Shown here: in pieces, positions 13,300 to 56,400 of the stretch | How the letters are laid out: each line of letters opens with the position of its first letter | Position numbering within the stretch: the first letter of the stretch is position 1 | Source of the DNA: Candidatus Undinarchaeota archaeon | GTDB taxonomy: Archaea > Undinarchaeota > Undinarchaeia > Undinarchaeales > JALTGF01 | Assembly (NCBI GenBank): GCA_964574035.1 | Contig: CAZNLD010000001.1 | Coordinates: 16,220 to 80,219, forward strand | Reading direction: 5' to 3' | DNA length: 64,000 nt | Notes under the pieces: generated by a model | The model's input: only the letters and a program-made list of their open reading frames with translations | What the model was told of the DNA's origin: nothing | The model's database searches: none | Program-made: the position numbers and the translations under genes

Positions 13300-13347
13300 A
13301 GGATGTACCATTAACTATCTACCATAAACCATTCACTATTAATTGAG

Positions 13348-13469
13348 CGCCCCCAGCAGGAGTTGAACCTGCGACCTTCCGGTCTCTGTCACTCCGCTTC
13401 GCTTCGTGAATAGCCACAAAGCAAGCTTTGTGATAACAGCCGGATGCTCTTCCACTAAGCTACAGGGGC
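13348..13469 (-). tRNA. tRNA-Asn (anticodon GUU) with an intron of about 50 nt after position 37.
   Basis: Folded from the reverse complement. Acceptor GCCCCTG/TGGGGGC. D-stem GCTT/GAGC. Anticodon stem TCCGG/CCGGA separated by CTGTTA plus about 50 nt. T-arm GCAGG-TTCAACT-CCTGC. Discriminator G. Confidence 0.55.
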
Positions 13470-13533
13470 ATTTGAGGTATAATATAATGCTTTAAGGAAT
13501 TTATAAAGTTAGTTGTTTGCAGGAATATTTATT

Positions 13534-14622
13534 CTAGTCCAAGAACTGCTCGTTTTCTATCTTCTCAGGAAGATATTCTTTTGCAACGAAGTCAAGACTC
13601 TTGTTTGCAAGAGCCTGCTGTTCAATTCTGACTCCCATATCCAGCATCTTTTTGAGCTGTTCAATCCATTCCTGATTATGTTTAAACCAAGGATAATCCA
13701 TTTCTTCCTTTATTCGTTTTTTGTCAGTATCCTTGAGTTTTTCAGTAACATTTTCCAGCTCATACTTTTCAATATCGCCCATAGTCATTCCTACATATTT
13801 GCTCTTCGGAACTGCATATCTTTCTGAGAGATGTGCAAGCTCAATTGAACCATATTTCAAAACGGAATAAATGTAGAAACCATACGGATCGCCGTCTACA
13901 AAAGCAACAACGGGCAAATCCAGTTCGTCTGAAAGTATTTTCGTAAATCGTCTTACTCCCCTCGGAAACATCCCTTCTCCCGTAATCATTAAGCAGTCAA
14001 GGTTTTTCCACACCTCTTCCTGAATAAGACGAGACATCATAGCATCGTTCTCTATTGCCAGAATAAACTCTGCATCATGGTTTACAACTTCAACATCTTC
14101 TACATAACCAGGAATAGCCCACCCTCCTCTTCCGAGCTTGCTGCAGTCAAACGTATCTCCTGTCTGTTTAAGAGTTATGTTTCCATAGATAGAGCCTCTT
14201 GCTTTTGCCTCAACATGAAGTCTTTCTCTTAAAATACCAAGTGAGGCTTCAAGGTCGTTCAAAGTTTTTCCGCTTTCAGTATCATCTTCAAAAGTATTTT
14301 CCTTCGAATTAGGAAGAGAGTGCTTCAAATTGTAATACAATTCTCGTTTTCCTACTGTTCTGTCGTCTTCAATATAACTTTTGCAAGCAGCCGCGATTAA
14401 CATAGACTGCATGAACTTCCTCGTGTGAGAAACATTCAGGAATTTTCTTGTTGATTTTCGGTCCCCTAGTTCGAGTAGTTTCTTGTTCTCATTAAAAGAA
14501 ACATTTGACCTTGTTCTTGTAGGCATTTTGAAGTTTGGGCCTACTCCTTTCTCAACGAGATTGGTCATATTCTCTCCGAATTCTTCTATTTTTTTGATTG
14601 ATTCTTTGCTTGGCTTATCCAT
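13534..14622 (-). CDS. top6A: DNA topoisomerase VI subunit A (Spo11-like).
   Basis: 362 aa. Toprim-containing Spo11/TopoVIA architecture. Immediately downstream of top6B on the same strand. Confidence 0.8.
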   Translation of the reverse strand: MDKPSKESIKKIEEFGENMTNLVEKGVGPNFKMPTRTRSNVSFNENKKLLELGDRKSTRKFLNVSHTRKFMQSMLIAAACKSYIEDDRTVGKRELYYNLKHSLPNSKENTFEDDTESGKTLNDLEASLGILRERLHVEAKARGSIYGNITLKQTGDTFDCSKLGRGGWAIPGYVEDVEVVNHDAEFILAIENDAMMSRLIQEEVWKNLDCLMITGEGMFPRGVRRFTKILSDELDLPVVAFVDGDPYGFYIYSVLKYGSIELAHLSERYAVPKSKYVGMTMGDIEKYELENVTEKLKDTDKKRIKEEMDYPWFKHNQEWIEQLKKMLDMGVRIEQQALANKSLDFVAKEYLPEKIENEQFLD

Positions 14623-14624
14623 CT

Positions 14625-16259
14625 TTACTCTTCTTCAGGCTCTGGTATTTCTTCATATGCAGCCTGTTCTTCCTCCTCGTCTTTTTTTATTTCTTCTTCT
14701 TTAAAAAGTTCGCTAAATCTTTCCCTCACAATTTCATCCAACCCTTTTTCTATTTTCTTTTCATCTCCCCCGGTTATTCTTGCAATTGCTTTTGCTGTTT
14801 CAGGTACGTATTTTTCAAAGGCTTTTTTCTTTTCCTTCTGCTCCTTAAGGCGCCTCTTTCCTGCCAGGAATTTCTTTAATTTTCTTCCAATCTGCATTAG
14901 AGCATATCTCATTTCGTCAAGAATTTCTTCCTCTTTTGCTATTGCCTGCTTTCCTGCAGAAGTGTAAGGAACGTGAGTTGAAATTAAATTTATGAATACT
15001 GTTACAGGAGCATTGTCCAGATCAGAAATATTGTATCTTTTCCAGTCAACTGTTTTCATGGCCTCAGTAGTTACACATGCGCCTCTATCAAACAAAAGAG
15101 GGGCCCTGTTTGCAAATCTCATTAATTCTACCTTCTTTCCTCCGCCATTTGAACTTGTTTCCCTTCCTGCATTTCCTCCATAGGCAATTGCAACTTCAAC
15201 AAGGAATGGTATGCCTCCCTGATAAACAGTAGGTTTTCTTGTTATTGCCTCAACAAAATCAGGCGCCAGCAGGCTTTCAAGAGCTTTTTCAACAGTATCT
15301 TCTCCTATTGGAACAAGTCCCGAAGTAGGAGGTGCCATGAAATCTGCTTTTTTGAAAGCATCTGTAAGTTTCTCGGCTTTTTCCCAGTCAAGTCTTTTCG
15401 GGCTCACCTTTAAATCATAACCAACTTCTTCCTGAACTTCCTTTACTCTCTTTGAACTTACTCTTGAAAGTTCATTTTTAAGCATGGAACTTATTGATCT
15501 GGAATTTGTTTTGTGAGCAATATCAAGTAAATCATGGGTTTCAAGTCCTTCTGGATGGGGCTGAATTTCTTCAGGAGTTTCAGGAACTTCGTCAATAACT
15601 CTTTCAAAAACAATTTCAGAATCCATGTCTTTGAACTTAATTGTAGCATGAGGATTTGCTGCAGCAGTCCATCTGACATATTCAAAAGGACCCTGTCTGC
15701 CTTTAGTATACATTACATTTTTAAATTCAAGTTCAACAATTGTTCCTCTCCAGGTGTCATTTAATACTTCTTTTTCAACAATCTCCGGCTTATTTTTCTT
15801 TATATCCATCTTAACTTTGGCGTCAATTATCTTGCCACTGCCGGTTCCAGATTTGATCCTGGTTGGTTTGCCAGTAGTTACCTGAGAAAATAGAACTGCC
15901 CCACTTACACCAAGCCCCTGCTGTCCTCTAAGCTGAATATTTCTATGGAATTTGGTTCCTGTAAGGAGCTGTCCAAAAACTTTTTCTAAATGATTTATTG
16001 GAATTCCAGGGCCATTGTCCTGTACTTTGACTCTGTAATGGTTGTCCCCGACTTCTTTTATTGCAACTTTAATAACAGGCAGAATACCTGCCTCTTCACA
16101 CGCATCAAGACTGTTTGTAACTAGCTCATGGATTACAGTCGTGAGACTCTTTATTTTTCCAACATATCCGAGATACTGCTTGTTCTTTCTAAAAAATTCT
16201 GAGAGAGGTACTTCTTTGAATTCTTTGAAGAGTGTATCTGCAGTTACTTCTTTTACCAT
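14625..16259 (-). CDS. top6B: DNA topoisomerase VI subunit B (GHKL ATPase).
   Basis: 544 aa. Bergerat-fold motifs IHELVTNSLDA and DNGPGI. Confidence 0.85.
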   Translation of the reverse strand: MVKEVTADTLFKEFKEVPLSEFFRKNKQYLGYVGKIKSLTTVIHELVTNSLDACEEAGILPVIKVAIKEVGDNHYRVKVQDNGPGIPINHLEKVFGQLLTGTKFHRNIQLRGQQGLGVSGAVLFSQVTTGKPTRIKSGTGSGKIIDAKVKMDIKKNKPEIVEKEVLNDTWRGTIVELEFKNVMYTKGRQGPFEYVRWTAAANPHATIKFKDMDSEIVFERVIDEVPETPEEIQPHPEGLETHDLLDIAHKTNSRSISSMLKNELSRVSSKRVKEVQEEVGYDLKVSPKRLDWEKAEKLTDAFKKADFMAPPTSGLVPIGEDTVEKALESLLAPDFVEAITRKPTVYQGGIPFLVEVAIAYGGNAGRETSSNGGGKKVELMRFANRAPLLFDRGACVTTEAMKTVDWKRYNISDLDNAPVTVFINLISTHVPYTSAGKQAIAKEEEILDEMRYALMQIGRKLKKFLAGKRRLKEQKEKKKAFEKYVPETAKAIARITGGDEKKIEKGLDEIVRERFSELFKEEEIKKDEEEEQAAYEEIPEPEEE

Positions 16260-16260
16260 T

Positions 16261-16794
16261 TTAAAGTTCTTTTGCTTTCTCCTTTAATTCTTTTTCCATT
16301 GATTTAAACACTGCGCCGTGCATTGCTCCATTTATCAGCTTTTCAACGGCCCTCATAGCTATTTCAAGACCGATTGGGAAACCGATTATAGCGACAGTAT
16401 GTCCATGTATGACTATATCAGTATTAGTCAGGTCCTGTATTTTCTTTTTTGATTTTCCTTCTTTTCCGATTATCCTTCCTTTAATTCTGACCTGAGTTGA
16501 TTTATTTTTCCCCAGATAATCTTTTAAATTGATTATCTTGAGATCAGCATTTTCTTCTAGTATTCGATAAGCTTTCTTTGAGGAAAAACCTCTGCCAATT
16601 GCTTTTATGACATCACGAGCTTTCCATAAAAGGAAAGGGTCTGACTCATCAGTTTCAGAAATCATGACCTCATTGAGCTCACTGTCAATTTTGACCTTGG
16701 TTTTTGTTTCCCGTTCAATTCGCTTTATTATTTTTGCATCATCTGCAAGAAGGTACTTAATCCTCTTGGCAGGAATTTTCAAGTATTCAACCAT
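16261..16794 (-). CDS. KH-domain RNA-binding protein (Dim2/Pno1-like).
   Basis: 177 aa. Two KH-like modules (IPAKRIKYLLADDAKIIKRIERETKTKVKID and a GKNKSTQVRIKGRIIGKEG element). Confidence 0.5.
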   Translation of the reverse strand: MVEYLKIPAKRIKYLLADDAKIIKRIERETKTKVKIDSELNEVMISETDESDPFLLWKARDVIKAIGRGFSSKKAYRILEENADLKIINLKDYLGKNKSTQVRIKGRIIGKEGKSKKKIQDLTNTDIVIHGHTVAIIGFPIGLEIAMRAVEKLINGAMHGAVFKSMEKELKEKAKEL

Positions 16795-16897
16795 TATGAT
16801 TTTGTATTATATATAAGGCTTTTCCTTTATTTAAAGGTAACGGCTTGCTTGTTGTTGATTTTGGGTTTATTCGGTCTTAATTTTAAGAACGCTCAAT

Positions 16898-17260
16898 CTA
16901 TATCTGTTGTTCTTCTATAAAATCTCTTGTAATATATCCTCTTTTAATTAATTCATTTACCTGGTTTTTCTTGTAAAAATACAGATAGTCTCCTTTTTCG
17001 TCGCTTTGAATATCCCATTTCTTTACAAGAACAACGTAGCCAGGTTTTACTCTTAGCTTATATCTGATTTTGCCCGGAATCCTACAGCTTCTGGTATGTC
17101 CATCCGTGCATCTTACAAGCAGTTTTGAACCGTAATGTTCTTCAACTACTCCAAGAAGTTCATTTTTTGACTTCTTTGGTATTCTGACTCTGACATAGCC
17201 TCCAGACTGCTGATTTCCTTTCTTTCCTTTTTTCTTATTTTTATTCTGAGGCATACCCAT
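16898..17260 (-). CDS. eif1a: Translation initiation factor 1A (aIF-1A).
   Basis: 120 aa. S1/OB core: VRVRIPKK...LLVRCTDGHTRSCRIPGKIRYKLRVKPGYVVLV. Confidence 0.8.
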   Translation of the reverse strand: MGMPQNKNKKKGKKGNQQSGGYVRVRIPKKSKNELLGVVEEHYGSKLLVRCTDGHTRSCRIPGKIRYKLRVKPGYVVLVKKWDIQSDEKGDYLYFYKKNQVNELIKRGYITRDFIEEQQI

Positions 17261-17350
17261 TTACTTGAATACTGCGGTTTATTAAGGTTTTGTAATTGCT
17301 AGCTTATAAAAATATAAATAGAAGATAGTAGAAAGGATTATTGAGTAAAA

Positions 17351-18337
17351 ATGAGTGTCAGGCCTCTATACGAAACAGTAATTGAGAAGCAGAAGGGAGA
17401 TGTTTTTGCCATGTGGCCGTATTTTGCTTTTCCGGGTAGTGAATTTGATAGAAAGAGAAAAGAATATTATGGTTCTGAAAGAGGGGATCATGTAGAACTT
17501 AAATCCGCAATGAAGGGTTTTGATACTAGGATTATACTTAATGCCGGAAATGAACCAGCCGGGATACCAAGATGGATATATACGGAACTCTGGGAGAAAG
17601 GTTACAAGTGGGATTTTGACCTGATCATAGCAGCTTCTAACATGTACAACTCTCACTTGCCGGAGCTGTCCGGAAAGAAAGTTGCATTTAAAGACGGAAT
17701 AGACAGATCAAAACCAATTAAATTCATCAAATCAAAAAAAGGCATAATTGGAGTTCAAACTAAAGAAATGTACGCCGACTATGAAAAAAGAGAACTAGGA
17801 GTTATAATACCAAAAGAAGTGCTTCCCGAAGATTATAAGATTCCTGCAATTACGCATGAATATTGCTCAAATATAGGAATGTATGGATTCGTAGCGAGTA
17901 ATGAAATAGGACTGTTAAATAAATATAGAGGTGGTTTTTCCAACCCTCCAACGGATGAGTTGTTAGAAAAGGGAGGCAAAGATCTTGTTGACAAGTACAG
18001 CGAGAAGGTATTCAAAAAACTCTTGGAAACTACTTTTGAACTCGCAAAAATTGCGAAAAAGGAGGGCAAAGGCGACCAGTTTGTTTTTGCAGCCGCGGAT
18101 GAAAGTTCTCAATTTGGTTTAGTAGGTGCCAATACTATCCCATTCGTTGATGGGATTGAAAAGGCTATGAAGGATAAATTTAATTATGTTTATGAAGCTA
18201 AATGGCTGAGTGCGGGTGAAGCATTAAATAAATGGGGAATGGAAAAAAAGGACATCCGGCAATTAATAGGTACTTTTAAAAAATTAAAAACACAAAAGCC
18301 GGAGTGTAAAATGGAAATAGAGTTGAATGAACTATAG
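17351..18337 (+). CDS. Hypothetical protein (328 aa), no recognised domain.
   Basis: Long ORF with no internal stops and coding-like composition. Confidence 0.4.
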   Translation: MSVRPLYETVIEKQKGDVFAMWPYFAFPGSEFDRKRKEYYGSERGDHVELKSAMKGFDTRIILNAGNEPAGIPRWIYTELWEKGYKWDFDLIIAASNMYNSHLPELSGKKVAFKDGIDRSKPIKFIKSKKGIIGVQTKEMYADYEKRELGVIIPKEVLPEDYKIPAITHEYCSNIGMYGFVASNEIGLLNKYRGGFSNPPTDELLEKGGKDLVDKYSEKVFKKLLETTFELAKIAKKEGKGDQFVFAAADESSQFGLVGANTIPFVDGIEKAMKDKFNYVYEAKWLSAGEALNKWGMEKKDIRQLIGTFKKLKTQKPECKMEIELNEL

Positions 18338-18370
18338 AAGATTAAGGTTTTTTACATTAAAAATTAATCA

Positions 18371-18443
18371 ATAACTATCTACTATCCACCACCCACAACC
18401 TACTGCCCACTACTCTCTACCCACCATCTTCCACCCACAACCT
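18371..18443. repeat. C-rich degenerate heptanucleotide tandem array (about 10 units, NNNCYAC periodicity; G-rich on the other strand).
   Basis: ATCTACT ATCCACC ACCCACA ACCTACT GCCCACT ACTCTCT ACCCACC ATCTTCC ACCCACA ACC, read directly from the sequence. Confidence 0.6.
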
Positions 18444-18476
18444 TTATATAACTAAACCACGCTTTATAATGCTACT

Positions 18477-18722
18477 ATGTATCCGGAAAACAAACTTACA
18501 AGATTTGAAAGAGCAAGAATTATTGGTGCAAGAGCTCTGCAGATTGCGATGGGCGCGCCGATATTAATAGACATTCCTGAAGAATTAGTTGACCCTACAG
18601 AAATTGCTGTTCTTGAATTTAAAGAAAGAAGTGTTCCAATGACAGTTGTTAGAAGAGCTAAAAACAAGCCGGCTATCACTATAGATATTAAAAATATAGA
18701 TCTTGAAAAAAAGAGATATTAA
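18477..18722 (+). CDS. rpoK: DNA-directed RNA polymerase subunit K (Rpb6/omega homologue).
   Basis: 81 aa. LTRFERARIIGARALQIAMGAP is the hallmark RpoK/RPB6 motif. Confidence 0.85.
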   Translation: MYPENKLTRFERARIIGARALQIAMGAPILIDIPEELVDPTEIAVLEFKERSVPMTVVRRAKNKPAITIDIKNIDLEKKRY

Positions 18723-20021: not shown

Positions 20022-20022
20022 T

Positions 20023-23689: not shown

Positions 23690-23842
23690 GTTTATAAAGG
23701 GAAAAGGGTGTTCGATGTTAAGATGTTCGATAAGTGATAGTAGATTATGCATAGTCGGCAGCTGCTGGTAGGTATTTATCAATTCTTACAGTTTGTCTAA
23801 CTGTCGATTGTCTATTGTCTAATATCAATTGTCCATTATCGA
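23690..23842. repeat. Copy A of the dispersed intergenic repeat. It has an imperfect palindromic core CGGCAGCTGCTGGTAG (23756-23771) flanked by degenerate heptamer arrays (GATNNNN on the left; ATTGTCT-type on the right).
   Basis: Direct sequence comparison with the copies at 30466-30565 and 56296-56400. Confidence 0.6.
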
Positions 23843-25093
23843 TTACGTTCCTTCTTCCCAGCTTGACAGATATTTCTTCTGCTCTTTAGAAAGTTCGTCA
23901 ATTTCCATTCCCATCGTTTTCAGCTTCATTTCCGCTATTCTTTCGTCAATTTTTCTTGGTACTGAATAAACTCTGGGCTCCATATCAGAATGGTTGTTTA
24001 AAATATATTCAGCCATTAAAGATTGATTCGCAAAACTCATATCCATTACTTCGCACGGATGCCCTTCCGCAGCCGCCAAATTTACAAGTCTTCCTTCAGC
24101 CAGCAGATAAATTTTCCTGCCGTCCTTTAAAGTATATTCCTTCGTATTATTTCTGATTTCTCTTGAATTTTTGCTTAATTTTTCAAGCTCAGGGATATTA
24201 ATTTCATTATTGAAATGACCTGAATTTGCCAGAACTGCACCATCCTTCATCTTTTTAAAATGCTCTTTTGTAATTATGTTCTTATCTCCAGTTGCTGTAA
24301 CAAATATATCTCCGATTTTGGATGCTTCAGACATTTTCATTACTGTGAAGCCGTCCATTGCCGCTTCAAGTGCTTTTACAGGGTCAACCTCAGTCACAAA
24401 TACTCTGGCACCCATTCCTTTTGCTCTCATGGCAATTCCCCTGGAACACCAGCCATAGCCTGCAACAACAAAATTACTTCCTGCAATCATTACAGAAGTT
24501 GCCCTTAGAATTCCATCAATTGTGGACTGCCCAGTTCCGTATCTGTTGTCAAACAAATGCTTTGTCATTGCATCATTTACTGCAACAACCGGGAACTTCA
24601 GAACATTGTCCTTTTCCATTGCTCTAAACCGAATTACTCCGGTTGTGGTTTCTTCAGTTCCTCCCAAAACATTTGGAATTAAATCTTCCCTTTTTGAGTG
24701 TAAGGTGGCAATTAAATCTCCACCGTCGTCCATTGTTATTTTTGGTTTGCCGTCTAAAACCTTATTTACACACCAATAATATTCTTCTTCAGAAACGCCT
24801 CTCCAGGCAAAAACATTTATTCCATCTTTGGCGAGCTGCGCAGCTACATCATCCTGCGTACTTAATGGATTTGAACCGCATAAATAGACATCCGCTCCTC
24901 CTGCTTTTAGAGTTCTCATTAAAATTCCGGTTTCTTTTGTTACATGCAGGCAGGCGCCAAGTGAACTTCCTTCAAGCGGCTTCTCTTTCTTAAATCTCTT
25001 TCTTATTTCCTGAAGAACCGGCATGTGATCTTCAGCCCAGTCAAGTTTTAATTTTCCTTTTTCAGCTAAATTTTTGTCTTTTACTTTACTCAT
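23843..25093 (-). CDS. ahcY: Adenosylhomocysteinase (SAH hydrolase).
   Basis: 416 aa. NAD-binding [15 protein letters not shown]-type fold throughout. Confidence 0.85.
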
Positions 25094-29388: not shown

Positions 29389-30465
29389 ATGAAAAAGGTA
29401 GAGGAAAAAGAAATAAAACTGAAAATTCCGGAAAACCACAGGAAGCCGGAAAAATCAGAAGTTTTTTATAATCCAGAGATGGAAATGAATCGGTCTCTTT
29501 CTGTCGCTTCTGCTAAAGTTTATTTTGAGAATAAGAAAATTAAAATTCTGGATCCTTTTTCTGCAACCGGAATCAGGGCCATTAGGTATGCAAAAGAGCT
29601 GGAAGGAACAGTTCTTGCTTCTGATATAAGTCAAAAGGCAGTAGATTTGACTGAAAAAAATGCATATCTGAATGGTGTTGAAATTGAAACAGAAAGAGAA
29701 AAAGCAAATGTAATTCTTAACAGAGCTTATTTCGATTTGATCGATATTGATCCTTTTGGAAGTCCGGCTCCTTTTTTGCAGGCGGCTTCCAAAGCGCTTA
29801 AAAATAATGGGATGCTTGGAATTACTGCAACAGATGCAACTGCTTTATGCGGAGTTTATCCAAAAGTTTGTCTTAGGAACTATGGGGCTGTTCCTTTAAG
29901 AACTGAATACTGCCACGAAATCGCAATGAGAATTTTAATTGGATATACTGTGAAAGAAGCGGCTGTTTATGAAAAAGCAGTTGAACCACTGCTGGTTTTT
30001 AATGACAAACATTATTTCAGACTTCAGCTGAAAATAAGAAAAGGAGCAAAAAGAGCAAATAACTGTCTTGATAAAATTGGTAATATCTACCACTGTTTTA
30101 ACTGCGGAGCAAGGAAAATGGAAAAAGGCAGATTTGTAAAAAAAGAAAAATGTAAATGCGGGGAGAAATTTGAAATTGGCGGACCGGTCTGGACCGGAAA
30201 ATTATTCGATCCTAAGTTTTGTAAGAAGATTTTATTTGAAGTTGAAGGAAATAAAGAACTTGAAAAGCAGACTAGATTGATGATTGAAGAAGCAGGGCAT
30301 GAGCCTCTTTTTTATGATGTTCATGAAGTTTTTAGAGGAAGTTCAATTCCAAAACTTGAAAAAATTATTGAAAAACTGAAAGAAAAAGGATTTAAAGCAA
30401 GCAGAACTCACTTTTCGCCGGTCGGAATTAGAACGGATGCAGAAATATCAGATATTAGATGCTAG
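29389..30465 (+). CDS. trm1: tRNA (guanine26-N2)-dimethyltransferase Trm1.
   Basis: TRM1 family. DPFGSPAPFL motif and a Cys-cluster insertion. The start is the internal ATG (MKKVEEK); the upstream part of the ORF overlaps the divergent gene. Confidence 0.8.
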   Translation: MKKVEEKEIKLKIPENHRKPEKSEVFYNPEMEMNRSLSVASAKVYFENKKIKILDPFSATGIRAIRYAKELEGTVLASDISQKAVDLTEKNAYLNGVEIETEREKANVILNRAYFDLIDIDPFGSPAPFLQAASKALKNNGMLGITATDATALCGVYPKVCLRNYGAVPLRTEYCHEIAMRILIGYTVKEAAVYEKAVEPLLVFNDKHYFRLQLKIRKGAKRANNCLDKIGNIYHCFNCGARKMEKGRFVKKEKCKCGEKFEIGGPVWTGKLFDPKFCKKILFEVEGNKELEKQTRLMIEEAGHEPLFYDVHEVFRGSSIPKLEKIIEKLKEKGFKASRTHFSPVGIRTDAEISDIRC

Positions 30466-30565
30466 ATAATCGATATAAATGGACAATCGATAATAGATGA
30501 TAGAACATCGATAATCGACAGTTAGACAAGTTGTAGTGTTAATAAACATCTACCAGCAGCTGCCA
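30466..30565. repeat. Copy B of the dispersed repeat, in inverted orientation relative to copy A. About 90 bp are alignable, including the core CTACCAGCAGCTGCC (30550-30564), with AATCGAT-type heptamers on the left.
   Basis: The reverse complement of 23760-23850 aligns with 30470-30565 (…atcgacagttagacaaRYtgtaR…ataaaYaYctaccagcagctgcc). Confidence 0.6.
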
Positions 30566-30593
30566 GCTCAACCATTTTCCCTTGGCCAATACT

Positions 30594-30722
30594 ACCAGTT
30601 CAAATAATTCAAATAATCCGTACCACCCGTCCAAATTATCCGGCGAATTCACACTGCCAGTTCAAATTACTTGAATAGCTCAAAACACCAGCTCGAATTA
30701 CTCAGCGAGCTCAAACTACCTA
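30594..30722. repeat. Degenerate direct repeats (units CAGTTCAAATAATT / CAGTTCAAATTACT / CAGCTCGAATTACT / GAGCTCAAACTACC), including two tandem 31-bp copies at about 30658-30720.
   Basis: Read directly from the sequence, in the convergent intergenic region between trm1 and tfb. Confidence 0.5.
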
Positions 30723-30725
30723 CCT

Positions 30726-37419: not shown

Positions 37420-37570
37420 TTAAAGTTTGCTTAAAGGATGGACGTTAGATATTAGACAATAGACAATGGAGATGTGGCTAGTAGCAGTTAATGAGCACTA
37501 CTGACTTTGATGTCTATCATCCATTATCGATTGCCTATTGTCGATGCTCTATCGTCGATTGTCTATACAA
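37420..37570. repeat. Variant copy C of the dispersed repeat. AGACAAT heptamers lie on the left and an eight-unit TGTCNAT array on the right (37511-37568). The centre has a hairpin-like AGTAGcagttaatgagcaCTACT in place of the CAGCTG core.
   Basis: The heptamers share the consensus of copies A and B (TGTCTAT CATCCAT TATCGAT TGCCTAT TGTCGAT GCTCTAT CGTCGAT TGTCTAT). Confidence 0.55.
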
Positions 37571-39238
37571 TCACATCATGCCAGGCATTCCGGCAGGCAT
37601 TCCGCCTCCGCCTGGTCCTGGTGGAGCGCCGCCTCCGCCGCCGTCGCCTTTGCCAAGTTCTTTGGCTGAAATGATATCATCGATTCTCAAAATCATTTCT
37701 GCAGCTTCAGATGCGCTTTTGATAGCCTGAGTTTTAATTTTCAAGGGTTCAACTACACCGTCCTTGAACATGTCTCTTATTTCTCCCTTGAGAACATCCA
37801 GACCATACCACTTATTGCTTTTCTTCTCATGTGCATTTCTCATTTCAACAAGTTTGTCAATTGGGTCAAGACCTGCGTTTTCAGCTAGACTTCTTGGAAT
37901 TATTTCAAGTGCGTCTGCGAATGCTGACAGTGCAAGCTGTTCCCTGCCTTCGACTTTTTCAGCTTCGGCTCTCACTCTTTTTACAAGTTCTACTTCAACT
38001 GCGCCTCCGCCTCCGACAACCTTGCCGGTCGTGATAGCTACTGAAACGCCTCCTATTGCGTCTTCAAGTGCTCTTTCAACTTCATCAACAACATGGTCTG
38101 TTCCTCCTCGGATAAGGACTGAGACTGCTTTTGGACTCTTACAGTCGGTTACGAAAACCATTTCGTCTCCAGCAACCTTCTTTTCTTCAACTATTCCTGC
38201 CTTTCCAAGGTCAGCTTCTGAAAGGTCGTCCAGGCTCGAAATAACCTTTCCGCCTGTAGCTCTTGCAAGCTTCTGCATGTCGCTTTTCTTTACCCTTCTG
38301 ACTGCAAAAATTCCCTGCTTGGCAAAATAGTGCTGAGCTAAATCACCTATTCCTTTCTGGCAGAAAAGTACATTTGCTCCGGTTTTCTTAACCAAGTCAA
38401 CCATTTCTTTCAGCATTCCCTCTTCCTGACTTAAGAAATCCTTGAGTTTTGCAGGATCGGTTATCTGAATTTCTGCTTCAGTTTCAGTCTCCTTGATTTC
38501 AATTGCGGAGTCAACAAGAGCGATTTTTGCGTTCTTCATATGTTTAGGCATAGAAGAGTGGACTCTTTCTTTGTCTATGATAAGTCCTTTTATTAGTTTA
38601 GAATCGTCTATGCTTCCTCCGTCTCTTTTTTCAAGTTTTATGTTATCTGTATCGACTTCGAATTTACCTCCATCTTTTTCAGCTACAAGTGAAACTGCTT
38701 CTACCGCGAGATTTGCAAGCATGTCTCTTGCTCTCTCCGCTGATTTTCCAGTCATTGCAGTCATTGCAACTTTTTCAAGTAGTTCTTTGTCTTCTGGAGA
38801 AATCGTTTCGGAAAGCTCTTCCAGAATTTCCTGAGCTTTTTCATTCGCCATTCTGTAACCGTGAACGATTACCGTTGGGTGAATGTTCTGCTCAAGAAGT
38901 TCTTCTGCTTTCTTAAGAAGTTCTCCTGCAATTACTACTGCAGAAGTTGTTCCGTCTCCAACTTCTTCTTCCTGCGCCTGGGAAACTTCAACCAGCATCT
39001 TAGCTGAAGGATGCTGAATATCCATTTCTCGTAAAATAGTGGCGCCGTCATTAGTGATTACGATATCACCAAGATTATCAACAAGCATCTTGTCCATTCC
39101 TTTTGGACCAAGAGTTGTTCTTACTGACTCGGCTACTATTCTTCCGGCCAGTATGTTCATTCTCTGCGCGTCACGGCCCATAGTCCGCTGCGCCTGATCT
39201 GACATAACTACAACAGGTTTTCCTGTTAATTGTGCCAT
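37571..39238 (-). CDS. ths: Thermosome (group II chaperonin) subunit.
   Basis: [14 protein letters not shown]-binding GDGTTS. C-terminal GGM-type tail ([22 protein letters not shown]). The start is reassigned to [11 protein letters not shown], which is preceded by GGAGGTG. Confidence 0.9.
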
Positions 39239-44897: not shown

Positions 44898-44899
44898 AA

Positions 44900-48184: not shown

Positions 48185-48230
48185 TCTCTTAAATTACTAT
48201 GAGAGAGAAGTTAAAATATTTATCTACTAA

Positions 48231-49310: not shown

Positions 49311-49383
49311 ATTAATTCTTACTTAAATAAGTTTTTACAGTATCAAAATAAATATAAACTCAAGAATACACTTAAAAAGTACA

Positions 49384-50187: not shown

Positions 50188-50190
50188 ACA

Positions 50191-50523: not shown

Positions 50524-50603
50524 ATTTGTTTTAAAGGAACCACTACATTTATATACTACTTCTTACCACTATATAGTAGTGAACTTGGGAGAGATGGTTT
50601 AAA

Positions 50604-51455
50604 ATGGTCGTATGGATGCTCTTTGCAGTGCCGGTAATTATGGTTTTCGGAGCCATGGGACTGGCTATTAAATATCCCCATAATTTAATTATAGGTAAAA
50701 TTATTTTTGAAATAAAACAGTACGAAAAAGCAGTTGTTTACCGTTTAGGTAAATATCACAGAACACTAGAACCCGGCTGGCGTATTGTTATTCCAATTAT
50801 TGAAAGTTTTGTCAACTATGATTTAAGAACGGAGGCACTTGACGTTGCTGCTCAAGAAGTTATTACAAAGGACGGAATTAAGCTTTTAATTGATGCAATT
50901 ATTTACCTGAGGGTTGAAGATGTTGTAAAAGCGGAGCTTGAAGTTGAAGAAGACTATAGAAAAGCAATTGAAGCCCACGTAAAAGGTCGTATCAGAAATA
51001 TTGCAGGTACGGTTGATATTAATGAACTTTATGCTAATATTGGAGATATTAACAAGCAGTTAGAAAAAGAAACACAGGAGCTTGTAAGATCATGGGGTGT
51101 TGATATTGTTAACATGGAACTTCAGACAATTAAACCGCCTGAAGATGTTGTTGATGCTCTGCAGGCCAGAGAAATTGCAGAGAGATATAAAGAAGCTGCA
51201 AAGGAAGAAGCTCAGCAGACAAAAATTAGAATTGATGCTATTGAAGCTGCTGCAGGAAAACTTTCTGAACCTGCATTAAACTATCTTTATCTGCAGACCC
51301 TGAAAGATGTTGCCGACGGACAGTCAAGCAAGATAATCTTCCCGCTTGAATTCAGCAAGCTTGCTGAAAAGATTGGAAAAGGAGTAGGCGGAGGACTGGA
51401 TAAAGAAGGCCTCGAAAGTCTCGCAAAAAAGTATCTGGGTTCTGCAGCAAACTAA
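50604..51455 (+). CDS. SPFH / band-7 (stomatin/prohibitin-like) membrane protein.
   Basis: N-terminal TM then the band-7 core (YEKAVVYRLGKYHRTLEPGWRIVIPIIE). Confidence 0.75.
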   Translation: MVVWMLFAVPVIMVFGAMGLAIKYPHNLIIGKIIFEIKQYEKAVVYRLGKYHRTLEPGWRIVIPIIESFVNYDLRTEALDVAAQEVITKDGIKLLIDAIIYLRVEDVVKAELEVEEDYRKAIEAHVKGRIRNIAGTVDINELYANIGDINKQLEKETQELVRSWGVDIVNMELQTIKPPEDVVDALQAREIAERYKEAAKEEAQQTKIRIDAIEAAAGKLSEPALNYLYLQTLKDVADGQSSKIIFPLEFSKLAEKIGKGVGGGLDKEGLESLAKKYLGSAAN

Positions 51456-51463
51456 AATAAGAA

Positions 51464-51697
51464 GTGACAATCATGAGAAGTGAAGAAATTTTAAGAAGTA
51501 AAACAGATGTTGGAAAAATTTCTGAAAGAACTAAGGTTCTTCGGGTAGACTGCGGTCTGGAAAAGAAAGATGCAGTTGACATTATGAAAAGATGTAGAAC
51601 CCTGAAAGAGGTTGTATTCGAATATAATGCATTTAATCATACCGAAGAGGAAGCCCTGGAATACCTGAATAGATGGGTTTATCTTGAAAGAGAATAG
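51464..51697 (+). CDS. Small hypothetical protein (77 aa), a paralogue of the N-terminal module of the next gene.
   Basis: Shared module: L-[RT]-V-[DN]-C-x-L...A..I...CR.L..V.F...AF..T..E..EYL. Confidence 0.35.
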   Translation: MTIMRSEEILRSKTDVGKISERTKVLRVDCGLEKKDAVDIMKRCRTLKEVVFEYNAFNHTEEEALEYLNRWVYLERE

Positions 51698-51738
51698 ACT
51701 GAGTAAAATATATACTAATAAACCTACTATTTTTCTTT

Positions 51739-52155
51739 ATGGAAGAACTTCATGAATATACTCTGGAACATAAAGAAGATGTATGGAAACTTCCATCTGA
51801 AACAAGAATTCTTACTGTAAACTGCAGATTAAACCTTCATTTGGCTAAAAAAATAATTGAAAACTGCAGAGAGCTGGAATTTGTAAAATTTTCACCGCAC
51901 GCCTTTGAAATAACCGACAAGGAAACAGTTGAGTATTTAGAAGACCTTATTTTTGTTCAGATTGTTGGAAAGAAAATAAAACAAGATATTGATGAAAAAA
52001 CAAGGAAAAGAATAAGGAACCTCTGGAATTTAGGAGATCACAGTACAGAACATTTATCCGAGAAATTTAATATATCAAAAGATGTAGTTTATCAGATAGT
52101 TCATGAGAAAGCTCCGGAGCACGCAAAGGAGGAGAAGCATAAACATGGCAGATAA
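51739..52155 (+). CDS. Hypothetical protein (138 aa) with the same N-terminal module plus a C-terminal HTH-like segment.
   Basis: Paralogy to 51464..51697. The C-terminus LGDHSTEHLSEKFNISKDVVYQIVHEK is HTH-like. Confidence 0.35.
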   Translation: MEELHEYTLEHKEDVWKLPSETRILTVNCRLNLHLAKKIIENCRELEFVKFSPHAFEITDKETVEYLEDLIFVQIVGKKIKQDIDEKTRKRIRNLWNLGDHSTEHLSEKFNISKDVVYQIVHEKAPEHAKEEKHKHGR

Positions 52156-52570
52156 ATATCCAAAACTGGCAGTAGACATTTTAGTTGAAGAAAACGGAAA
52201 AATCCTTTTAATTAAGAGAAATTTTGAACCTTTTAAAGGAAAGTGGGCTCTGCCCGGCGGATTTGTCGAACTCGGAGAAACTGTTGAACAGGCTGCAGTC
52301 AGAGAAGCTGAAGAAGAAACAGGACTTGAGGTCGAACTTGAAGGCATATTAGGAGTTTATTCTGATCCGGAAAGAGATCCAAGGGGGCACATAATTTCAA
52401 TAGTATTTTTTGGCAGTAAAAAGGATGGAAAAGAGAAGGCAGGAAAGGAAATTCAGGACATCAAATGGACAAACTTTAACAAAACTGAAGGTATTGATTT
52501 TGCTTTTGATCACGCAACTATTGTTGGGGACTATAAAATTATTAAAATGGACATGGATATGCAGAGGTAA
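52145..52570 (+). CDS. NUDIX hydrolase.
   Basis: Nudix box GGFVELGETVEQAAVREAEEETGL. The start is chosen at the internal Met MADKYP. Confidence 0.75.
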   Translation: MADKYPKLAVDILVEENGKILLIKRNFEPFKGKWALPGGFVELGETVEQAAVREAEEETGLEVELEGILGVYSDPERDPRGHIISIVFFGSKKDGKEKAGKEIQDIKWTNFNKTEGIDFAFDHATIVGDYKIIKMDMDMQR

Positions 52571-52606
52571 AAACATAAATAAGCCCGGTGCAATTATTCT
52601 TTAAAA

Positions 52607-54340
52607 ATGAAACTATTACTGCAACACGTTGACTATGTCAATTTCAAAGTAACGAAAAAGACAAAGTTAGCCCGTAAACTGTCAGAAAAAGAAAAAAAAG
52701 GAGAGATGAAAGACTGTCTTTTTGTTAGATTTGCTTCCGAAAAAGAAGATGAAGCCGATGAAGACAAAATTGCAGAAAAAACAGTAAAAAACATACTTGA
52801 TGTTGCATCTGAAATTAAAGTTAAAAAAGTAGTTCTCTATCCTTATGTTCATTTGCTTTCAGGTTCAGATCCATCTGGAGTTAAAACAGCACTTCATATT
52901 CATAAAAAGATGAAGACCCTTCTTGAAAAGGAAGGATTTGACGTTCTTAATGCTCCTTTCGGCTGGTACAAACAATTTGAAATGAAATGTAAAGGCCACC
53001 CGATGAGCGAGCTGAGCAGAGTTGTTAGCTTAGAAGGTAAGAAAAAGAAAAAAGAGGAAAAAAAAGCTCCGGAGAAGCCAAAAGACGAAGAAGATGAAGG
53101 AGAAGTTAAACTTGGCAAACAAACTGTTCATTTGGACAGGGAAAAACTAAGCGAGAACGATCATAGAATTATCGGACAAAACCTGGACTTATATTCATTC
53201 CAAAAAGTAGGACCAGGCATGGTTTTCTTCCATTCAAAAGGATGGACAATTAGAAACCAAATGATTAAATTTATGAGAGAAAAACTTAATGAAGCCGGCT
53301 ATGAGGAAATAAATACGCCGATTATTCTTGATAAAAAACTCTGGAAAGTTAGCGGGCACTGGGATCATTACAAAGACCATATGTTCTTTACAAAAGTAGA
53401 TGACAGGGATTTCGCAGTTAAACCAATGAACTGTCCAGGAGGAATTCTGGTTTACAAAAATGAGAGCAGAAGTTATAATGACCTTCCAATGAGAATGTCA
53501 GAATTCGGACTGGTAAGCAGAGATGAATTAAGCGGAGTCCTTTCAGGTTTGTTTAGATTGAGGACATTTACGCAGGATGATGCCCATATTTACTGCACTG
53601 AAAAACAAATGGAAAAAGAGCTTGAAGATTTAATTGAACTTATTGACGATATTTACAAAACATTTGGATTTAAGTACAAGGTTGAGCTTTCAACAAGACC
53701 AGAAGATGCAATGGGCGATAAAAAAATCTGGGACCAAGCCGAAAAAACTCTGAAAAAAGCTCTTGAAAAAAAGAAAATTAAATATAAAATCAATGAAGGA
53801 GACGGAGCATTTTACGGCTCCAAAATTGACTACCATGTTACTGATTCATTAGGAAGAGACTGGCAGTGCGGAACGGTTCAGCTTGATTTCTTAATGCCGG
53901 AAAGATTTGAACTTACATATATTGATTCAAACGGAGAGGAAAAAAGACCTGTAATGATACATAGAGCAATATACGGAAGCCTTGAAAGGTTTTTAGGGGT
54001 TTTAGTTGAGCACTATAAAGGAAAATTCCCGCTCTGGCTTTCTCCTGAACAAGTTACTGTACTAACAATGAATGAGGACAGCATTGACTACGCTAAAAAA
54101 GTAGTTGAAAGATTGAAAAATGAAGGATTCAGAGTTACCCATAATTATGACGCTGAAACGATTGAAAGTAAGATAAGGGATGCCCAGCTTCAGCATGTTA
54201 ATTATACGATTGTTGTAGGAGATAAGGAAATTGAAAGTAAAACCATTGCTGTCAGAAACAGAAAAGGCAAGGTCAAATACAAGGTCAAATTAGATGACTT
54301 TGTAAATAAAATGAAAAAGGAAATTAAAGAAAGGAAATAA
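52607..54340 (+). CDS. thrS: Threonine--tRNA ligase, archaeal type with the N-terminal DTD-like editing domain.
   Basis: 577 aa. Class II motifs (FRLRTFTQDDAHIY). Archaeal N-terminal editing domain. A K/E-rich insertion (KKKKKEEKKAPEKPKDEEDEGE). Confidence 0.85.
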   Translation: MKLLLQHVDYVNFKVTKKTKLARKLSEKEKKGEMKDCLFVRFASEKEDEADEDKIAEKTVKNILDVASEIKVKKVVLYPYVHLLSGSDPSGVKTALHIHKKMKTLLEKEGFDVLNAPFGWYKQFEMKCKGHPMSELSRVVSLEGKKKKKEEKKAPEKPKDEEDEGEVKLGKQTVHLDREKLSENDHRIIGQNLDLYSFQKVGPGMVFFHSKGWTIRNQMIKFMREKLNEAGYEEINTPIILDKKLWKVSGHWDHYKDHMFFTKVDDRDFAVKPMNCPGGILVYKNESRSYNDLPMRMSEFGLVSRDELSGVLSGLFRLRTFTQDDAHIYCTEKQMEKELEDLIELIDDIYKTFGFKYKVELSTRPEDAMGDKKIWDQAEKTLKKALEKKKIKYKINEGDGAFYGSKIDYHVTDSLGRDWQCGTVQLDFLMPERFELTYIDSNGEEKRPVMIHRAIYGSLERFLGVLVEHYKGKFPLWLSPEQVTVLTMNEDSIDYAKKVVERLKNEGFRVTHNYDAETIESKIRDAQLQHVNYTIVVGDKEIESKTIAVRNRKGKVKYKVKLDDFVNKMKKEIKERK

Positions 54341-54691
54341 TCAAAATTTAATATGTTTTTTTAACTTTTTCTTATCATGCTTCCTTAAACCGCCGGTGAA
54401 ATTTTTAGGTATATGCCTTAATTCATGAATTAAGACTTCGTCCTGCTTTTTCTTGTTCAGATTGTCAAATCTTTCAGACAGGACCTCAATGACGTATCTT
54501 GGCTCCATGAAAAGGGCCTGCTGCCATATTTTAGGAAAGGACCAAATCCTTGCCAGAATGCTTTCAGACTTAGAACCCTCCGACCTGAAGCAGTAAATTT
54601 TGCTTGAATCAACGTTTGAAAAACCGTTGGAATCGACTAATTCAATAATTCTTTTTTTGATGTCGGGAGCTCTGAAATATTTGATTGCCAT
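54341..54691 (-). CDS. Small HExxH zinc-metallopeptidase-like protein (SprT/WLM-like).
   Basis: 116 aa. HELRH motif near the C-terminus. Confidence 0.4.
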   Translation of the reverse strand: MAIKYFRAPDIKKRIIELVDSNGFSNVDSSKIYCFRSEGSKSESILARIWSFPKIWQQALFMEPRYVIEVLSERFDNLNKKKQDEVLIHELRHIPKNFTGGLRKHDKKKLKKHIKF

Positions 54692-54788
54692 AGTTTAATT
54701 AAGGACTAGATTCTTTTTATCACTTGTGAAACGCAAAAGCTGCATAAATAGATTCTGCTTTTGTGAGCATTTATGGATAAAGGGTGAA

Positions 54789-55538
54789 ATGCAAATGAAA
54801 GTTCTATACTGGAAAGACGACAAAGCTGGAAAGAATATAGCTGAAAATCTGGTGGAAATTGGACTGGAGCATCTTTTAATTGAGTCAGAAAAATCTCTCT
54901 TATATTCTGAAGAGCTGGATATTGAAACTGATCTGTTTGTAGTTGCTTCAACGCATAGAAGTAAAACAAATAAACCCAGCCTTACGGTCCATCCAACAGG
55001 AAACTGGGGCTCTGCAGATGTCGGAGGAAACGAACATGAACTTTCATATACTAGTCCGGAAGCTCTGGCTGTCGGCTTGAGGGCAATTAATAAAAGAGAA
55101 ACAGAAGGGTTTGATGTAAGTATGGAGGCGACTCATCACGGCCCTACCGGCTGGAAAACTCCCCTGATATTTATTGAGATTGGAAGTAGGGAAAAAGAAT
55201 GGAAAAATAAAGAAGCAGGAAGAATTATTGCTGAGGCAATTTCTGAAATAAATGATTCTAAACAGACGTTTGAAAACTATGTCGGCTTCGGCGGGATACA
55301 CTACTGCCCTTACTTTACTAAAAGAGTTCTTGAAAATGAAGGGATTGCAATAGGACATGTTGCTCCTAAATATGCCTCAGAAGATTTGGATAAACAAATA
55401 ATCAAAGAGGCATTTGAAAAGAGCAATGCTGAAAAAGCTCTCTTTGACTGGAAAGGATTGAGAAGTAAGGAAAGAAACAAAATTTTAAATATTCTGGAAG
55501 AGTTAGGAATAGATTACAAGAGGGCGAGAGATATATGA
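54789..55538 (+). CDS. dtdA: D-aminoacyl-tRNA deacylase, archaeal type (DtdA/DTD2).
   Basis: ASTHRSKTNKPSLTVHPTGNWG, MEATHHGPT, FIEIGSREKEW and DWKGLRS match the DTD2 family. The start is at the internal ATG pair (MQMKVLY). Confidence 0.75.
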   Translation: MQMKVLYWKDDKAGKNIAENLVEIGLEHLLIESEKSLLYSEELDIETDLFVVASTHRSKTNKPSLTVHPTGNWGSADVGGNEHELSYTSPEALAVGLRAINKRETEGFDVSMEATHHGPTGWKTPLIFIEIGSREKEWKNKEAGRIIAEAISEINDSKQTFENYVGFGGIHYCPYFTKRVLENEGIAIGHVAPKYASEDLDKQIIKEAFEKSNAEKALFDWKGLRSKERNKILNILEELGIDYKRARDI

Positions 55539-56167
55539 GGAAACTATTTTGGAAAGATCCGTATAAAAAAGAATGCAGAGCAAAAGTTAAAAAAATTGAC
55601 GGCAGGAAAGTTGTATTAAATCAGAGTATTTTCTTTGCTTTTTCCGGAGGGCAGACATCCGATAAAGGAACAATTGGAGGAATCGAAGTTGAAAAAGCAG
55701 AAAAGGACAAGGACATAGTTTATACTTTGAAAGAAGAACCAACTTTTTCAGAAGGAGAGGAAGTTGAAGTAAAAATTGACTGGGATTTCAGATACAAATT
55801 AATGAAACTTCATTCCGCTGCCCATATTGTTTATGAAATATTCAAAGAAACAGCTGGCAGGAAAAAGATTATTGGCTCAAATATTTCAGGTAAAAAAGGA
55901 AGAATTGATTTTGAAATGGATGAAAACCTGAATGAATACCTGCCTCAAATTCAGAAAAAAACGAATGAATTAATTCAGAAAAATTTGAAGATTGAAACTT
56001 ATGAAGATGAAATTGAAAAAGGAAAAAGATGGTGGGAAATTCCTGGGAAGTGGAAAATGCCCTGCGGAGGAACTCATGTTAAAAAAACATCTGAAATAGG
56101 AGAAATTGAATTAAAAAGAAAGAATATTGGAGCAGGGAAGGAAAGAGTTGAAATTTACTTAAAATAG
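55535..56167 (+). CDS. alaX: Alanyl-tRNA editing protein AlaX (AlaX-M type).
   Basis: 210 aa. N2-like FFAFSGGQTSDKG. HxxxH (HSAAHIVYE). CGGTHV zinc-binding motif. Confidence 0.8.
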   Translation: MRKLFWKDPYKKECRAKVKKIDGRKVVLNQSIFFAFSGGQTSDKGTIGGIEVEKAEKDKDIVYTLKEEPTFSEGEEVEVKIDWDFRYKLMKLHSAAHIVYEIFKETAGRKKIIGSNISGKKGRIDFEMDENLNEYLPQIQKKTNELIQKNLKIETYEDEIEKGKRWWEIPGKWKMPCGGTHVKKTSEIGEIELKRKNIGAGKERVEIYLK

Positions 56168-56222
56168 TTCAGCGAAAGTGTATTTAATAAGCTTGCAGAT
56201 AAAATTAAAGATACATAAATTT

Positions 56223-56295
56223 AGCCCCGTAGTGTAGCGGTCAAGCATAGCAGGCCCTGGACCTGCTGACAGCAGTTCGAATCTGCTCGGGGCTA
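56223..56295 (+). tRNA. tRNA, most likely tRNA-Gln (anticodon CUG). It has an A1-U72 pair and discriminator A. The anticodon loop CCCTGGA has C at position 33.
   Basis: Acceptor AGCCCCG/CGGGGCT. Anticodon stem GCAGG/CCTGC. T-arm AGCAG-TTCGAAT-CTGCT. The numbering fits the canonical 73 nt. Confidence 0.5.
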
Positions 56296-56400
56296 CTAAA
56301 AAATGGTAGATGGTAAATAGTAGATCGTAAATGGTAAAGATCACCCAGCAGCTGCCGGCTACGCATAGAATCATTAACTATTAACTATAAACGATTAACC
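56296..56400. repeat. Copy D of the dispersed repeat. The core is CCCAGCAGCTGCCGGCTACGCATAG (56345-56369), flanked by RATNGTA heptamers (56303-56340) and YATTAAC heptamers (56362-56399).
   Basis: The core matches copy A (reverse complement) at 20 of 22 positions (CCAGCAGCTGCCGaCTAtGCAT versus CCAGCAGCTGCCGgCTAcGCAT). Confidence 0.6.

Follow-up and report, generated by a model that had tools for sequence, protein, structure and literature searches.

Several described systems resemble in part the tandem 7-nt arrays that we analyzed in a 64-kb window (the whole stretch of DNA under study) from an Undinarchaeales (DPANN) archaeon with 36% GC. Repetitive extragenic palindromes (REP) and bacterial interspersed mosaic elements (BIME) are built on an imperfect palindrome of 20–40 nt with a conserved GTAG/CTAC head and reach high copy number in extragenic space. 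Integron attC sites are imperfect palindromes of 57–141 nt that lie directly past the open reading frames (ORFs) of gene cassettes. At the RNA level, the ring protein HutP works in a 7-nt register, its sites consisting of UAG triplets four nucleotides apart. To our knowledge, omega of pSM19035 provides the only well-studied 7-bp tandem period that acts as a protein-binding code; its site unit has the consensus WATCACW. The parS site of omega/ParB of pSM19035 requires a run of four or more contiguous heptads, whether direct or inverted, and heptad sites in both orientations are an established protein-binding architecture (PMC9499535).

We propose, with a probability of about 0.55, that the archaeal arrays are the satellite-like arms of a lineage-specific, insertional family of short non-coding repeat elements similar to REP and to MITEs (miniature inverted-repeat transposable elements). 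The elements are insertions or expansions without counterpart in a relative of ~84% DNA identity. Like the REP/BIME and RAYT system of bacteria, they place palindromic units just past genes, are mosaic, are dispensable at individual loci, and could form hairpins in 3′ untranslated regions (3′-UTRs). Unlike REP, their core palindrome is much shorter (8–12 nt), their bulk is a 7-nt periodic array, and their host is an archaeon. With microsatellites and minisatellites, mycobacterial MIRUs, and pneumococcal BOX elements, they share variable unit number, higher-order periods, placement at gene junctions, and interplay with neighboring stop codons, but their unit is only 7 nt and position-constrained, the arrays are inverted around conserved cores, and non-periodic blocks are shared between loci. 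As in HutP RNA sites, transcribed non-coding sequence contains a short conserved motif at 7-nt intervals, but the motif differs, the arrays are longer and inverted, and no HutP-like gene was found. In full-text literature searches, we found no account of such heptad-repeat elements for Undinarchaeota or for other DPANN archaea.

The window encodes a thermosome, TBP, TFB, RpoK, MCM, topoisomerase VI, fibrillarin/Nop5, SMC/ScpA, and intron-bearing tRNAs, and its adenosylhomocysteinase (AdoHcyase) has 95% identity to its counterpart in an NCBI metagenome-assembled genome (MAG) labelled Candidatus Undinarchaeales. Together with two flanking loci of the same genome (L009, to the left of the window, and L010), ~76 kb of the element-bearing genome was covered. 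The closest sampled relative was a syntenic Undinarchaeales MAG, GCA_046483005.1, represented by loci L003 and L142. Other loci compared were L004 (~72% identity), L143, and L144 (more distant, 27% GC).

Heptad arrays in intergenic spacers

An earlier note on this DNA had described arrays that keep a fixed 7-nt phase. Using sliding lag-7 autocorrelation as a detector with a threshold of at least 25/42 matches, we recovered exactly the eight array regions and nothing else (13296–13344, 18347–18443, 23792–23858, 30445–30528, 37428–37490, 37508–37571, 56289–56354, and 56363–56422). Each array was present at or within ~10 nt of where it had been reported, although two starts moved, from 23801 to 23807 and from 56362 to 56372. 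At a threshold of at least 26/42, period 7 yielded 94 sliding windows, none of the other periods between 4 and 15 exceeded 26, and 100 dinucleotide-preserving shuffles gave a mean of 0.27 and a maximum of 7, upholding the 7-bp periodicity against shuffled controls. The arrays were confined to spacers. Because only 8 of 51 spacers were involved, the description of the arrays as pervasive was too strong; the lag-7 match fraction across all intergenic DNA (4.9 kb) was 0.315 vs. 0.293 (z = 3.5), and the signal is local. Within arrays, higher-order periods of 14, 21, and 42 nt occurred, and Tandem Repeats Finder (TRF) found those of 14 and 21 nt.

To compare units, we chose for each array the strand and phase with the highest column conservation, setting the phase once per array. 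All arrays then reduced to one heptad, [A/G]-T-n-G-[A/T]-n-n, in which T2 and G4 were kept in 59/60 units and n3 and n6 were close to random. Pooled majority fractions for heptad columns 1–7 were 0.86, 0.98, 0.57, 0.98, 0.95, 0.67, and 0.69, and columns this uneven (chi-square 66.6, p = 2e-12) are not expected from neutral decay of a perfect microsatellite. A simple microsatellite should decay uniformly and share nothing beyond its unit; we found heterogeneous columns together with shared cores and 17–20-mers. The unit came in three flavors: ATnGAYA (ATAGACA, ATCGACA, ATGGACA) in the elements that we call el1, el2, el4, and el5, ATnGTWn (ATGGTAA, ATAGTTA) in el3 and the array at 13305, and GTnGTGG in the C-rich array at 18371. 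Each arm holds 4–10 contiguous in-phase units, adjacent perfect duplicates occur (e.g., ATTGTCT ATTGTCT), and the arms converge.

A further claim concerned the motif RATAGTAGA, which does recur (17324, 18378 on the minus strand, 23736, and 56316), 5–6 nt away from the positions first reported. However, its four matches versus 1.04 expected were reached by 6/100 shuffles, and we rejected it as a separate motif.

Structure and position of the elements

With their cores, the arrays make up non-coding elements of ~45–140 nt. In el1, el3, el4, and el5, two arrays are oriented towards each other over a short core (units, core, inverted units); el5 is located immediately outside the window. El2 has a single array followed by a core, with no inverted partner detected, and the arrays at 13305 and 18371 are solo arms that share the 11-mer TAACTATCTAC and likewise have no inverted partner. 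Inverted arms were 70–84% complementary in el1, el4, and el5; the arm ends are further heptads, and a common terminus could not be defined. Identical arrays were present in independent Logan assemblies of four sequencing runs (el4 is identical in loci L001 and L002, and el3 in L010 and L011), which excludes an assembly artifact.

The reported threefold occurrence of a palindromic core was borne out, with exact copies of CCAGCAGCTGCC at 23757 (minus strand), 30553 (plus strand), and 56345 (plus strand), where 1.6 copies with up to two mismatches are expected. The palindrome proper is only GCAGCTGC, lying within this 12-mer and present three times in the 64 kb. Three cores carry CCAGCAGCTGCC, three carry a palindrome of the CTAYGCATA(G) type, which follows the CCAGCAGCTGCC core in el1 and el3 and also occurs in el5, and the core of el4 is a different hairpin. 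CTAC stands before the core in el1 and el2 (CTACCAGCAGCTGCC) and after it in el3 (CCGGCTAC). Both el4 and el5 form long hairpins of approximately −42 kcal/mol (z = −4.9 and −5.1), with 0/200 shuffles as stable; for el1–el3, the gain in stability over shuffles was not significant (z = −1.3 to −1.7).

Position was strict. Every element starts within 0–10 nt of a stop codon or tRNA 3′ end and extends as far as whatever comes next, be it a promoter, a start codon, or the end of a convergent gene, and none lies in a divergent, promoter-only spacer. The upstream stop codons belong to AdoHcyase, Trm1, thermosome, PRTase, and ORF328, and to a pyridine-nucleotide oxidoreductase in L009. The upstream tRNA 3′ ends are those of tRNA-Asn and tRNA-Gln, and of two tRNA-Arg loci in L009, where two further elements adjoin tRNA-Arg genes just outside the window. 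Within the window, arrays do adjoin tRNA genes twice, as had been noted, and in both cases at the 3′ end (tRNA-Asn, 13348–13469, minus strand; tRNA-Gln, 56223–56296). The unit length of 7 is not divisible by 3 and the units include TAG, TAA, or TGA, so that each arm places stops in all three reading frames, and the earlier observation of stop trinucleotides in all frames held for three frames on both strands of every element.

The array at 13305 (13300..13347, minus strand) is a solo arm of ATnGTnn units (ATAGTGA ATGGTTT ATGGTAG ATAGTTA ATGGTAC) that occupies the full gap between the PRTase stop codon and the tRNA-Asn 3′ end. The longest array, at 18371 (18351..18443, minus strand), comprises 10–11 units of GTnGTGG/ATAGTAG, is C-rich on the plus strand, reaches a lag-7 score of 30/42, and is placed between the stop codon of ORF328 and the promoter of rpoK; CCACCCACAACC repeats 42 nt apart within it. 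El1 (23704..23842, minus strand) begins directly past the stop codon of AdoHcyase and extends up to the TBP promoter. Its arm A (23802–23843; minus-strand units ATCGATA ATGGACA ATTGATA TTAGACA ATAGACA ATCGACA) and its degenerate inverted arm B (23704–23745) are 74% complementary, with the cores GGCAGCTGCTGG at 23757–23768 and TATGCATAG at 23746–23754.

El2 (30458..30565, plus strand) has an array at 30466–30527 that starts within the last Trm1 codons and supplies the Trm1 TAG stop, followed by the conserved AATCGACAGTTAGACAA (30513) and the CCAGCAGCTGCC core (30553–30564). El4 (37430..37570, minus strand) lies directly past the thermosome stop codon and consists of arm A (37511–37566; eight ATAGACA/ATCGACA units with a 14-nt super-period), a hairpin core (37478–37503), and an inverted arm B (37438–37472). 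Its fold is at −42.1 kcal/mol (z = −4.9), with the inverted arms complementary at 70% over 44 nt and at 84% over 19 nt. El3 (56297..56400, plus strand) occupies all the space between the tRNA-Gln 3′ end and the start codon of a HAD gene, with arm A at 56303–56337 (ATGGTAG ATGGTAA ATAGTAG ATCGTAA ATGGTAA), CCAGCAGCTGCC at 56345–56356, CTACGCATAG at 56359–56368, and arm B, made of CATTAAC units, at 56372–56399.

Comparison with relatives

The L003 locus of the closest relative aligned to window positions 12624–35375 at ~79–86% DNA identity, and the only breaks in this alignment were the four array-bearing segments. At 13303–13347, the window has a 45-nt array and the relative 0 nt, its stop codon abutting the tRNA, which makes this a clean insertion. 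The segment at 17292–18438, holding ORF328 and the C-rich array, measures 1147 nt in the window vs. 94 nt in the relative, el1 (23704–23841) 138 vs. 14 nt, and el2 with an adjoining array of 31-nt repeats (30458–30725) 268 vs. 6 nt. El1 separates the AdoHcyase stop codon from a T-rich stretch that directly follows the stop in the relative. Trm1 and TFB overlap tail-to-tail by 8 nt in the relative and lie 268 nt apart in the window, where the first el2 heptads (TTAGATG CTAGATA) form the new Trm1 stop codon. Stops in all frames allowed this insertion to split the overlapping Trm1 and TFB ends without harm.

Two orthologous spacers held shorter versions of the arrays. The tRNA-Gln/HAD spacer measures 104 nt in the window, compared with 13 nt in L143 and 33 nt in L142, and at L142 (1519–1551 of that locus of GCA_046483005.1) it contains four CATnAAC units between tRNA-Gln and the HAD start codon. 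Arm B of el3 corresponds to this short array, and arm A plus the core (~72 nt) are specific to the window. Upstream of rpoK, the relative has 2–3 units (ATAGTTG ATTGGTG) vs. 10–11 in the window. Across the six orthologous sites compared, arrays were absent at four and present as 2–4-unit versions at two. No further arrays were detected in L003 or L004 by the lag-7 or heptad detector, none in L143 by lag-7 scan, and no heptads in L144, where the lag-7 matches were T-rich low-complexity spacers. As a side observation, all three genomes compared leave too little space before the HAD gene for a promoter of its own, and the gene is therefore probably co-transcribed with tRNA-Gln.

Sequence shared between copies

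Separate elements share exact sequence well beyond the heptad. A 20-mer, ATTGTCTATTGTCTAATATC, is common to el1, el4, and el5 (three copies in ~76 kb), el1 and el2 share a 17-mer, el4 and el5 a 16-mer, and el1, el2, and el3 core blocks of 12–13 nt (13 nt between el1 and el3). Pairwise exact blocks were 11–20 nt long, compared with a mean of 7–8 nt and a maximum of 9–12 nt under a dinucleotide-shuffle null, and el1 and el2 are 85% identical over 53 nt. This sharing is mosaic, in that different pairs hold different blocks, and does not amount to uniform similarity of unit-length copies. In L009, a 61-nt direct repeat (5520–5585 and 6966–7026; 59/61 identical, ~1.4 kb apart) comprises half of a heptad arm together with the last 17 nt of tRNA-Arg(TCG), and its copies flank this tRNA and a pair of paralogous ORFs for membrane proteins (193 and 200 aa). 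It resembles an att-like duplication or a segmental copy, and because this arm/tRNA-Arg segment is duplicated, arm DNA can evidently be copied together with its flank.

Cross-matches of the shared blocks occurred only within the element-bearing genome, with none in the sampled relatives, and the 20-mer was absent from IMG/VR viral contigs. A looser six-unit ATNG pattern gave >119 unrelated matches on viral contigs and was too loose to inform. In JGI metagenomes, the 20-mer matched 10 loci, all unrelated bacterial or AT-rich sequence, including an lpxK promoter region of Flavobacteria-like type, repeats with 18% GC, and a Bacteroidetes-like contig that bears perfect heptamer microsatellites. 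This last contig (L137, JGI Ga0209737_10251633) carries, in the interval 1040–1215, a perfect (GGTTAAT)5 directly past a stop codon, and also (ATTGTCT)n within the signal-peptide region of the lipoprotein gene that follows. Both heptads are also units of the archaeal arrays and here form clean microsatellites; the agreement may be coincidental. The el1/el2-type core pattern GTTAGACAAN{10,40}CCAGCAGCTGCC, searched in one genome per GTDB species, gave only two chance matches, both bacterial.

Searches for an associated enzyme, RNA family, or promoter were negative. Transposase, integrase, ribbon-helix-helix (RHH), and ParA/ParB domains were absent from the ~40 window ORFs scanned and from the Pfam annotations of the remaining genes in the same-genome loci (including L009 and L010) and the orthologous loci, and no RAYT gene was present among the scanned window ORFs. 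Rfam covariance models matched only four tRNAs, both at the gathering threshold and at E ≤ 1, and no element. An internal promoter, suggested by TTTATCAA and TTTATTAA boxes beside the el1/el2 core, was rejected; these boxes fell outside the top 400 sites of a position weight matrix built from 16 TATA boxes of the host genome, and the same matrix found no promoter-grade TATA box inside the elements. A C/D-box sRNA was also set aside, with no UGAUGA/CUGA pair seen by eye.

Associated insertions and neighboring genes

One of the four indels also contains a gene. The insertion at 17294..18350 (plus strand) carries ORF328 (17351–18337) and is strain-specific and absent from L003. On either side of it stands an exact copy of the 11-bp direct repeat ATTAAGGTTTT (17281 and 18341), which the relative has only once. 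The segment looks like a recent gene insertion with duplication or microhomology at its junctions. A search of 5.8 billion protein clusters gave no homolog of ORF328, Pfam, NCBIfam, and PDB gave no match, and its AlphaFold model (pLDDT 35) was unusable. We accordingly rejected this ORFan as the elements' own protein.

A second repeat class lies directly past the el2 core, within the same inserted segment (30563..30725, plus strand). It consists of five degenerate 31-nt units with the motif CCAGYTCAAATWAT, which starts at 30563, 30595, 30626, 30657, and 30688. The same 31-nt family occurs in L009 at 11829–11913 (TRF period 31), past another stop codon ~8 kb left of the window, and there again adjoins a few heptads.

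Among the remaining genes, tRNA-Gly(TCC) at 1355–1448 and tRNA-Asn(GTT) at 13348–13469 carry introns, given their lengths of 94 and 122 nt; the latter was missed by ARAGORN and found only by Rfam. A 116-aa ORF at 54341–54691 matches the “putative phage metallopeptidase” family PF18894 (E = 1e-25), sits among housekeeping genes, and is conserved in Logan contigs.

Discussion

The data show a family that appears to be young and to have arrived as insertions, with arms that also seem to change length in place. Like MITEs, the elements are short, non-coding, and intergenic, have inverted arms and several related copies per genome, vary in presence and absence between close relatives, and contain no internal transposase. 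Unlike in MITEs, terminal inverted repeats with fixed ends could not be defined and no parent insertion sequence was identified, their copies of 45–140 nt are mosaic, and their arms are tandem heptads. Near-identical full-length copies, as expected of MITEs, were not found; the copies are related through exact blocks of 11–20 nt and one 53-nt stretch at 85% identity. Comparison of filled and empty sites at four insertions also gave no consistent target-site duplication, at most an ambiguous GAG at 13305. This lack of definable termini and target duplications, together with variable lengths and mosaic similarity, favors insertion followed by ectopic recombination or gene conversion over a classical MITE. 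The family is best filed within the known intergenic palindromic and MITE-like repeats, as new in its tandem heptad arms and strict post-gene location.

Under the mechanism that we propose, copies would spread when pre-formed element DNA inserts, arrays would then undergo ectopic recombination or gene conversion with one another, and arms would grow and shrink by slippage in 7-, 14-, or 21-nt steps. In a compact genome, only insertions at gene 3′ ends would survive, and all-frame stops would make such sites safe. The near-invariance of T2 and G4 beside random n3 and n6 suggests that each heptad is a recognition unit for a protein encoded elsewhere in the genome, perhaps a transposase, a recombinase, or some other protein that binds DNA. 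The units would then operate in the manner of the contiguous heptads to which omega/ParB of pSM19035 binds. Because the T2/G4 constraint, the contiguity, and the converging orientation resemble reiterated protein-binding sites, each heptad is probably a reiterated protein-recognition unit.

The earlier note raised three origins, namely a binding array, replication slippage, and a mobile-element process, and was borne out in part. The mobile-element process was supported both by the four array segments that are clean indels relative to the closest relative and by the exact non-periodic blocks common to separate loci. Slippage fits as a secondary process, as unit number differs at two orthologous spacers and periods of 14, 21, and 42 nt occur, but not as the sole cause. 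If each array were an independent microsatellite, grown in place from a local 7-nt seed and then decayed with neither dispersal nor function, the unit counts in the tRNA-Gln/HAD spacer (about 1, 4, and 4 + 5) and at rpoK would be explained, as would the super-periods and the perfect adjacent duplicates. However, such growth leaves unexplained the identical non-periodic cores and 17–20-nt blocks, the 45-nt array where the relative's spacer has zero length, and the strongly non-uniform conservation of heptad positions. Since the shared cores and the array in an otherwise empty spacer rule out purely local slippage, we consider independent microsatellites quite improbable. An integron origin, with the elements as attC sites or gene-cassette boundaries, is highly implausible and was largely refuted. 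The elements do have a similar length range, a position past stop codons, and imperfect dyad symmetry, one array follows the inserted ORF328, and the unit GTTAGAC fits GTTRRRY. Yet no RYYYAAC...GTTRRRY core-site pair exists at 40–140 nt in any element on either strand, the neighbors are housekeeping genes and tRNAs rather than cassettes, no intI was found, and tandem heptads are not a feature of attC sites.

The arrays could be DNA-binding sites of the host (iteron-like, centromere-like, or architectural) on which a protein polymerizes as omega/ParB does on parS of pSM19035, organizing or segregating the chromosome or insulating transcription units. Position-specific heptad conservation, the exact conservation of the 12-nt core, and 4–10 contiguous degenerate units in direct and inverted orientation, which exceed or equal the pSM19035 minimum of four, all fit this reading. 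However, the heptad [A/G]TnG[A/T]nn is unlike WATCACW, and the window ORFs scanned include no omega/delta-like, RHH, ParA, or ParB-like gene. Omega sites also lie upstream of plasmid promoters, whereas the elements are scattered past chromosomal housekeeping genes instead of being clustered, with their arms parted by a core. Arrays are also absent or vestigial at 6/6 orthologous sites in the closest relative; because they are not kept there, a regulatory or architectural role conserved at these very loci fails the test that the earlier note had set, and host-functional binding arrays are unlikely overall. Also doubtful is an RNA-level element of 3′-UTRs and tRNA trailers, transcribed with the upstream gene, whose hairpins would stabilize, terminate, or process the transcript as E. 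coli REP/BIME do. Such a role would suit the constant start within a few nucleotides of a stop codon or tRNA 3′ end and upstream of the next promoter, the stability of el4 and el5 relative to shuffles, and the location of el1 between a stop codon and the T-rich stretch that directly follows the stop in the relative. By contrast, the weak folding of el1, el2, and el3, solo arms that are unable to form a hairpin, the lack of Rfam matches, and the dispensability of the elements in the relative argue against it, and a hairpin needs no 7-nt periodic motif with invariant T and G.

The insertional family remains our preferred reading, and several points weigh against it. The elements vary widely in length and composition, and neither fixed termini nor a target-site duplication could be defined. 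No transposase, integrase, or RHH gene was found in the 64-kb window, and none is annotated in L009 or L010. The short arrays in two of the relative's spacers mean that some arrays may have grown in place rather than been inserted, and the relative may have lost arrays by deletion. The choice of phase for each array slightly inflates the apparent heptad conservation, and the genome-wide copy number is an extrapolation from ~76 kb of one genome. Finally, protein binding is something that we infer entirely from the pattern of the units.

DPANN genomes are small and tightly packed, and a recent burst of 45–140-nt non-coding elements in one of them is unexpected. The elements illustrate how selfish or semi-selfish DNA may survive streamlining, by keeping to the first bases past genes and by carrying built-in stops in all frames. 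They are also sharp strain markers, differing completely between genomes at ~84% DNA identity, and they can mislead gene callers by creating new stop codons and longer spacers. The strictly position-specific code of the 7-nt units hints at a binding protein, which experiments could identify. More tentatively, the heptad may be the code of a dedicated archaeal DNA- or RNA-binding protein that polymerizes along the converging arrays and meets at the core, which would make the elements mobile, centromere-like, or transcript-end-defining. If so, they would amount to archaeal equivalents of the omega-type heptad sites, distributed over the whole chromosome, and to a new kind of protein-addressed module in a streamlined DPANN genome.

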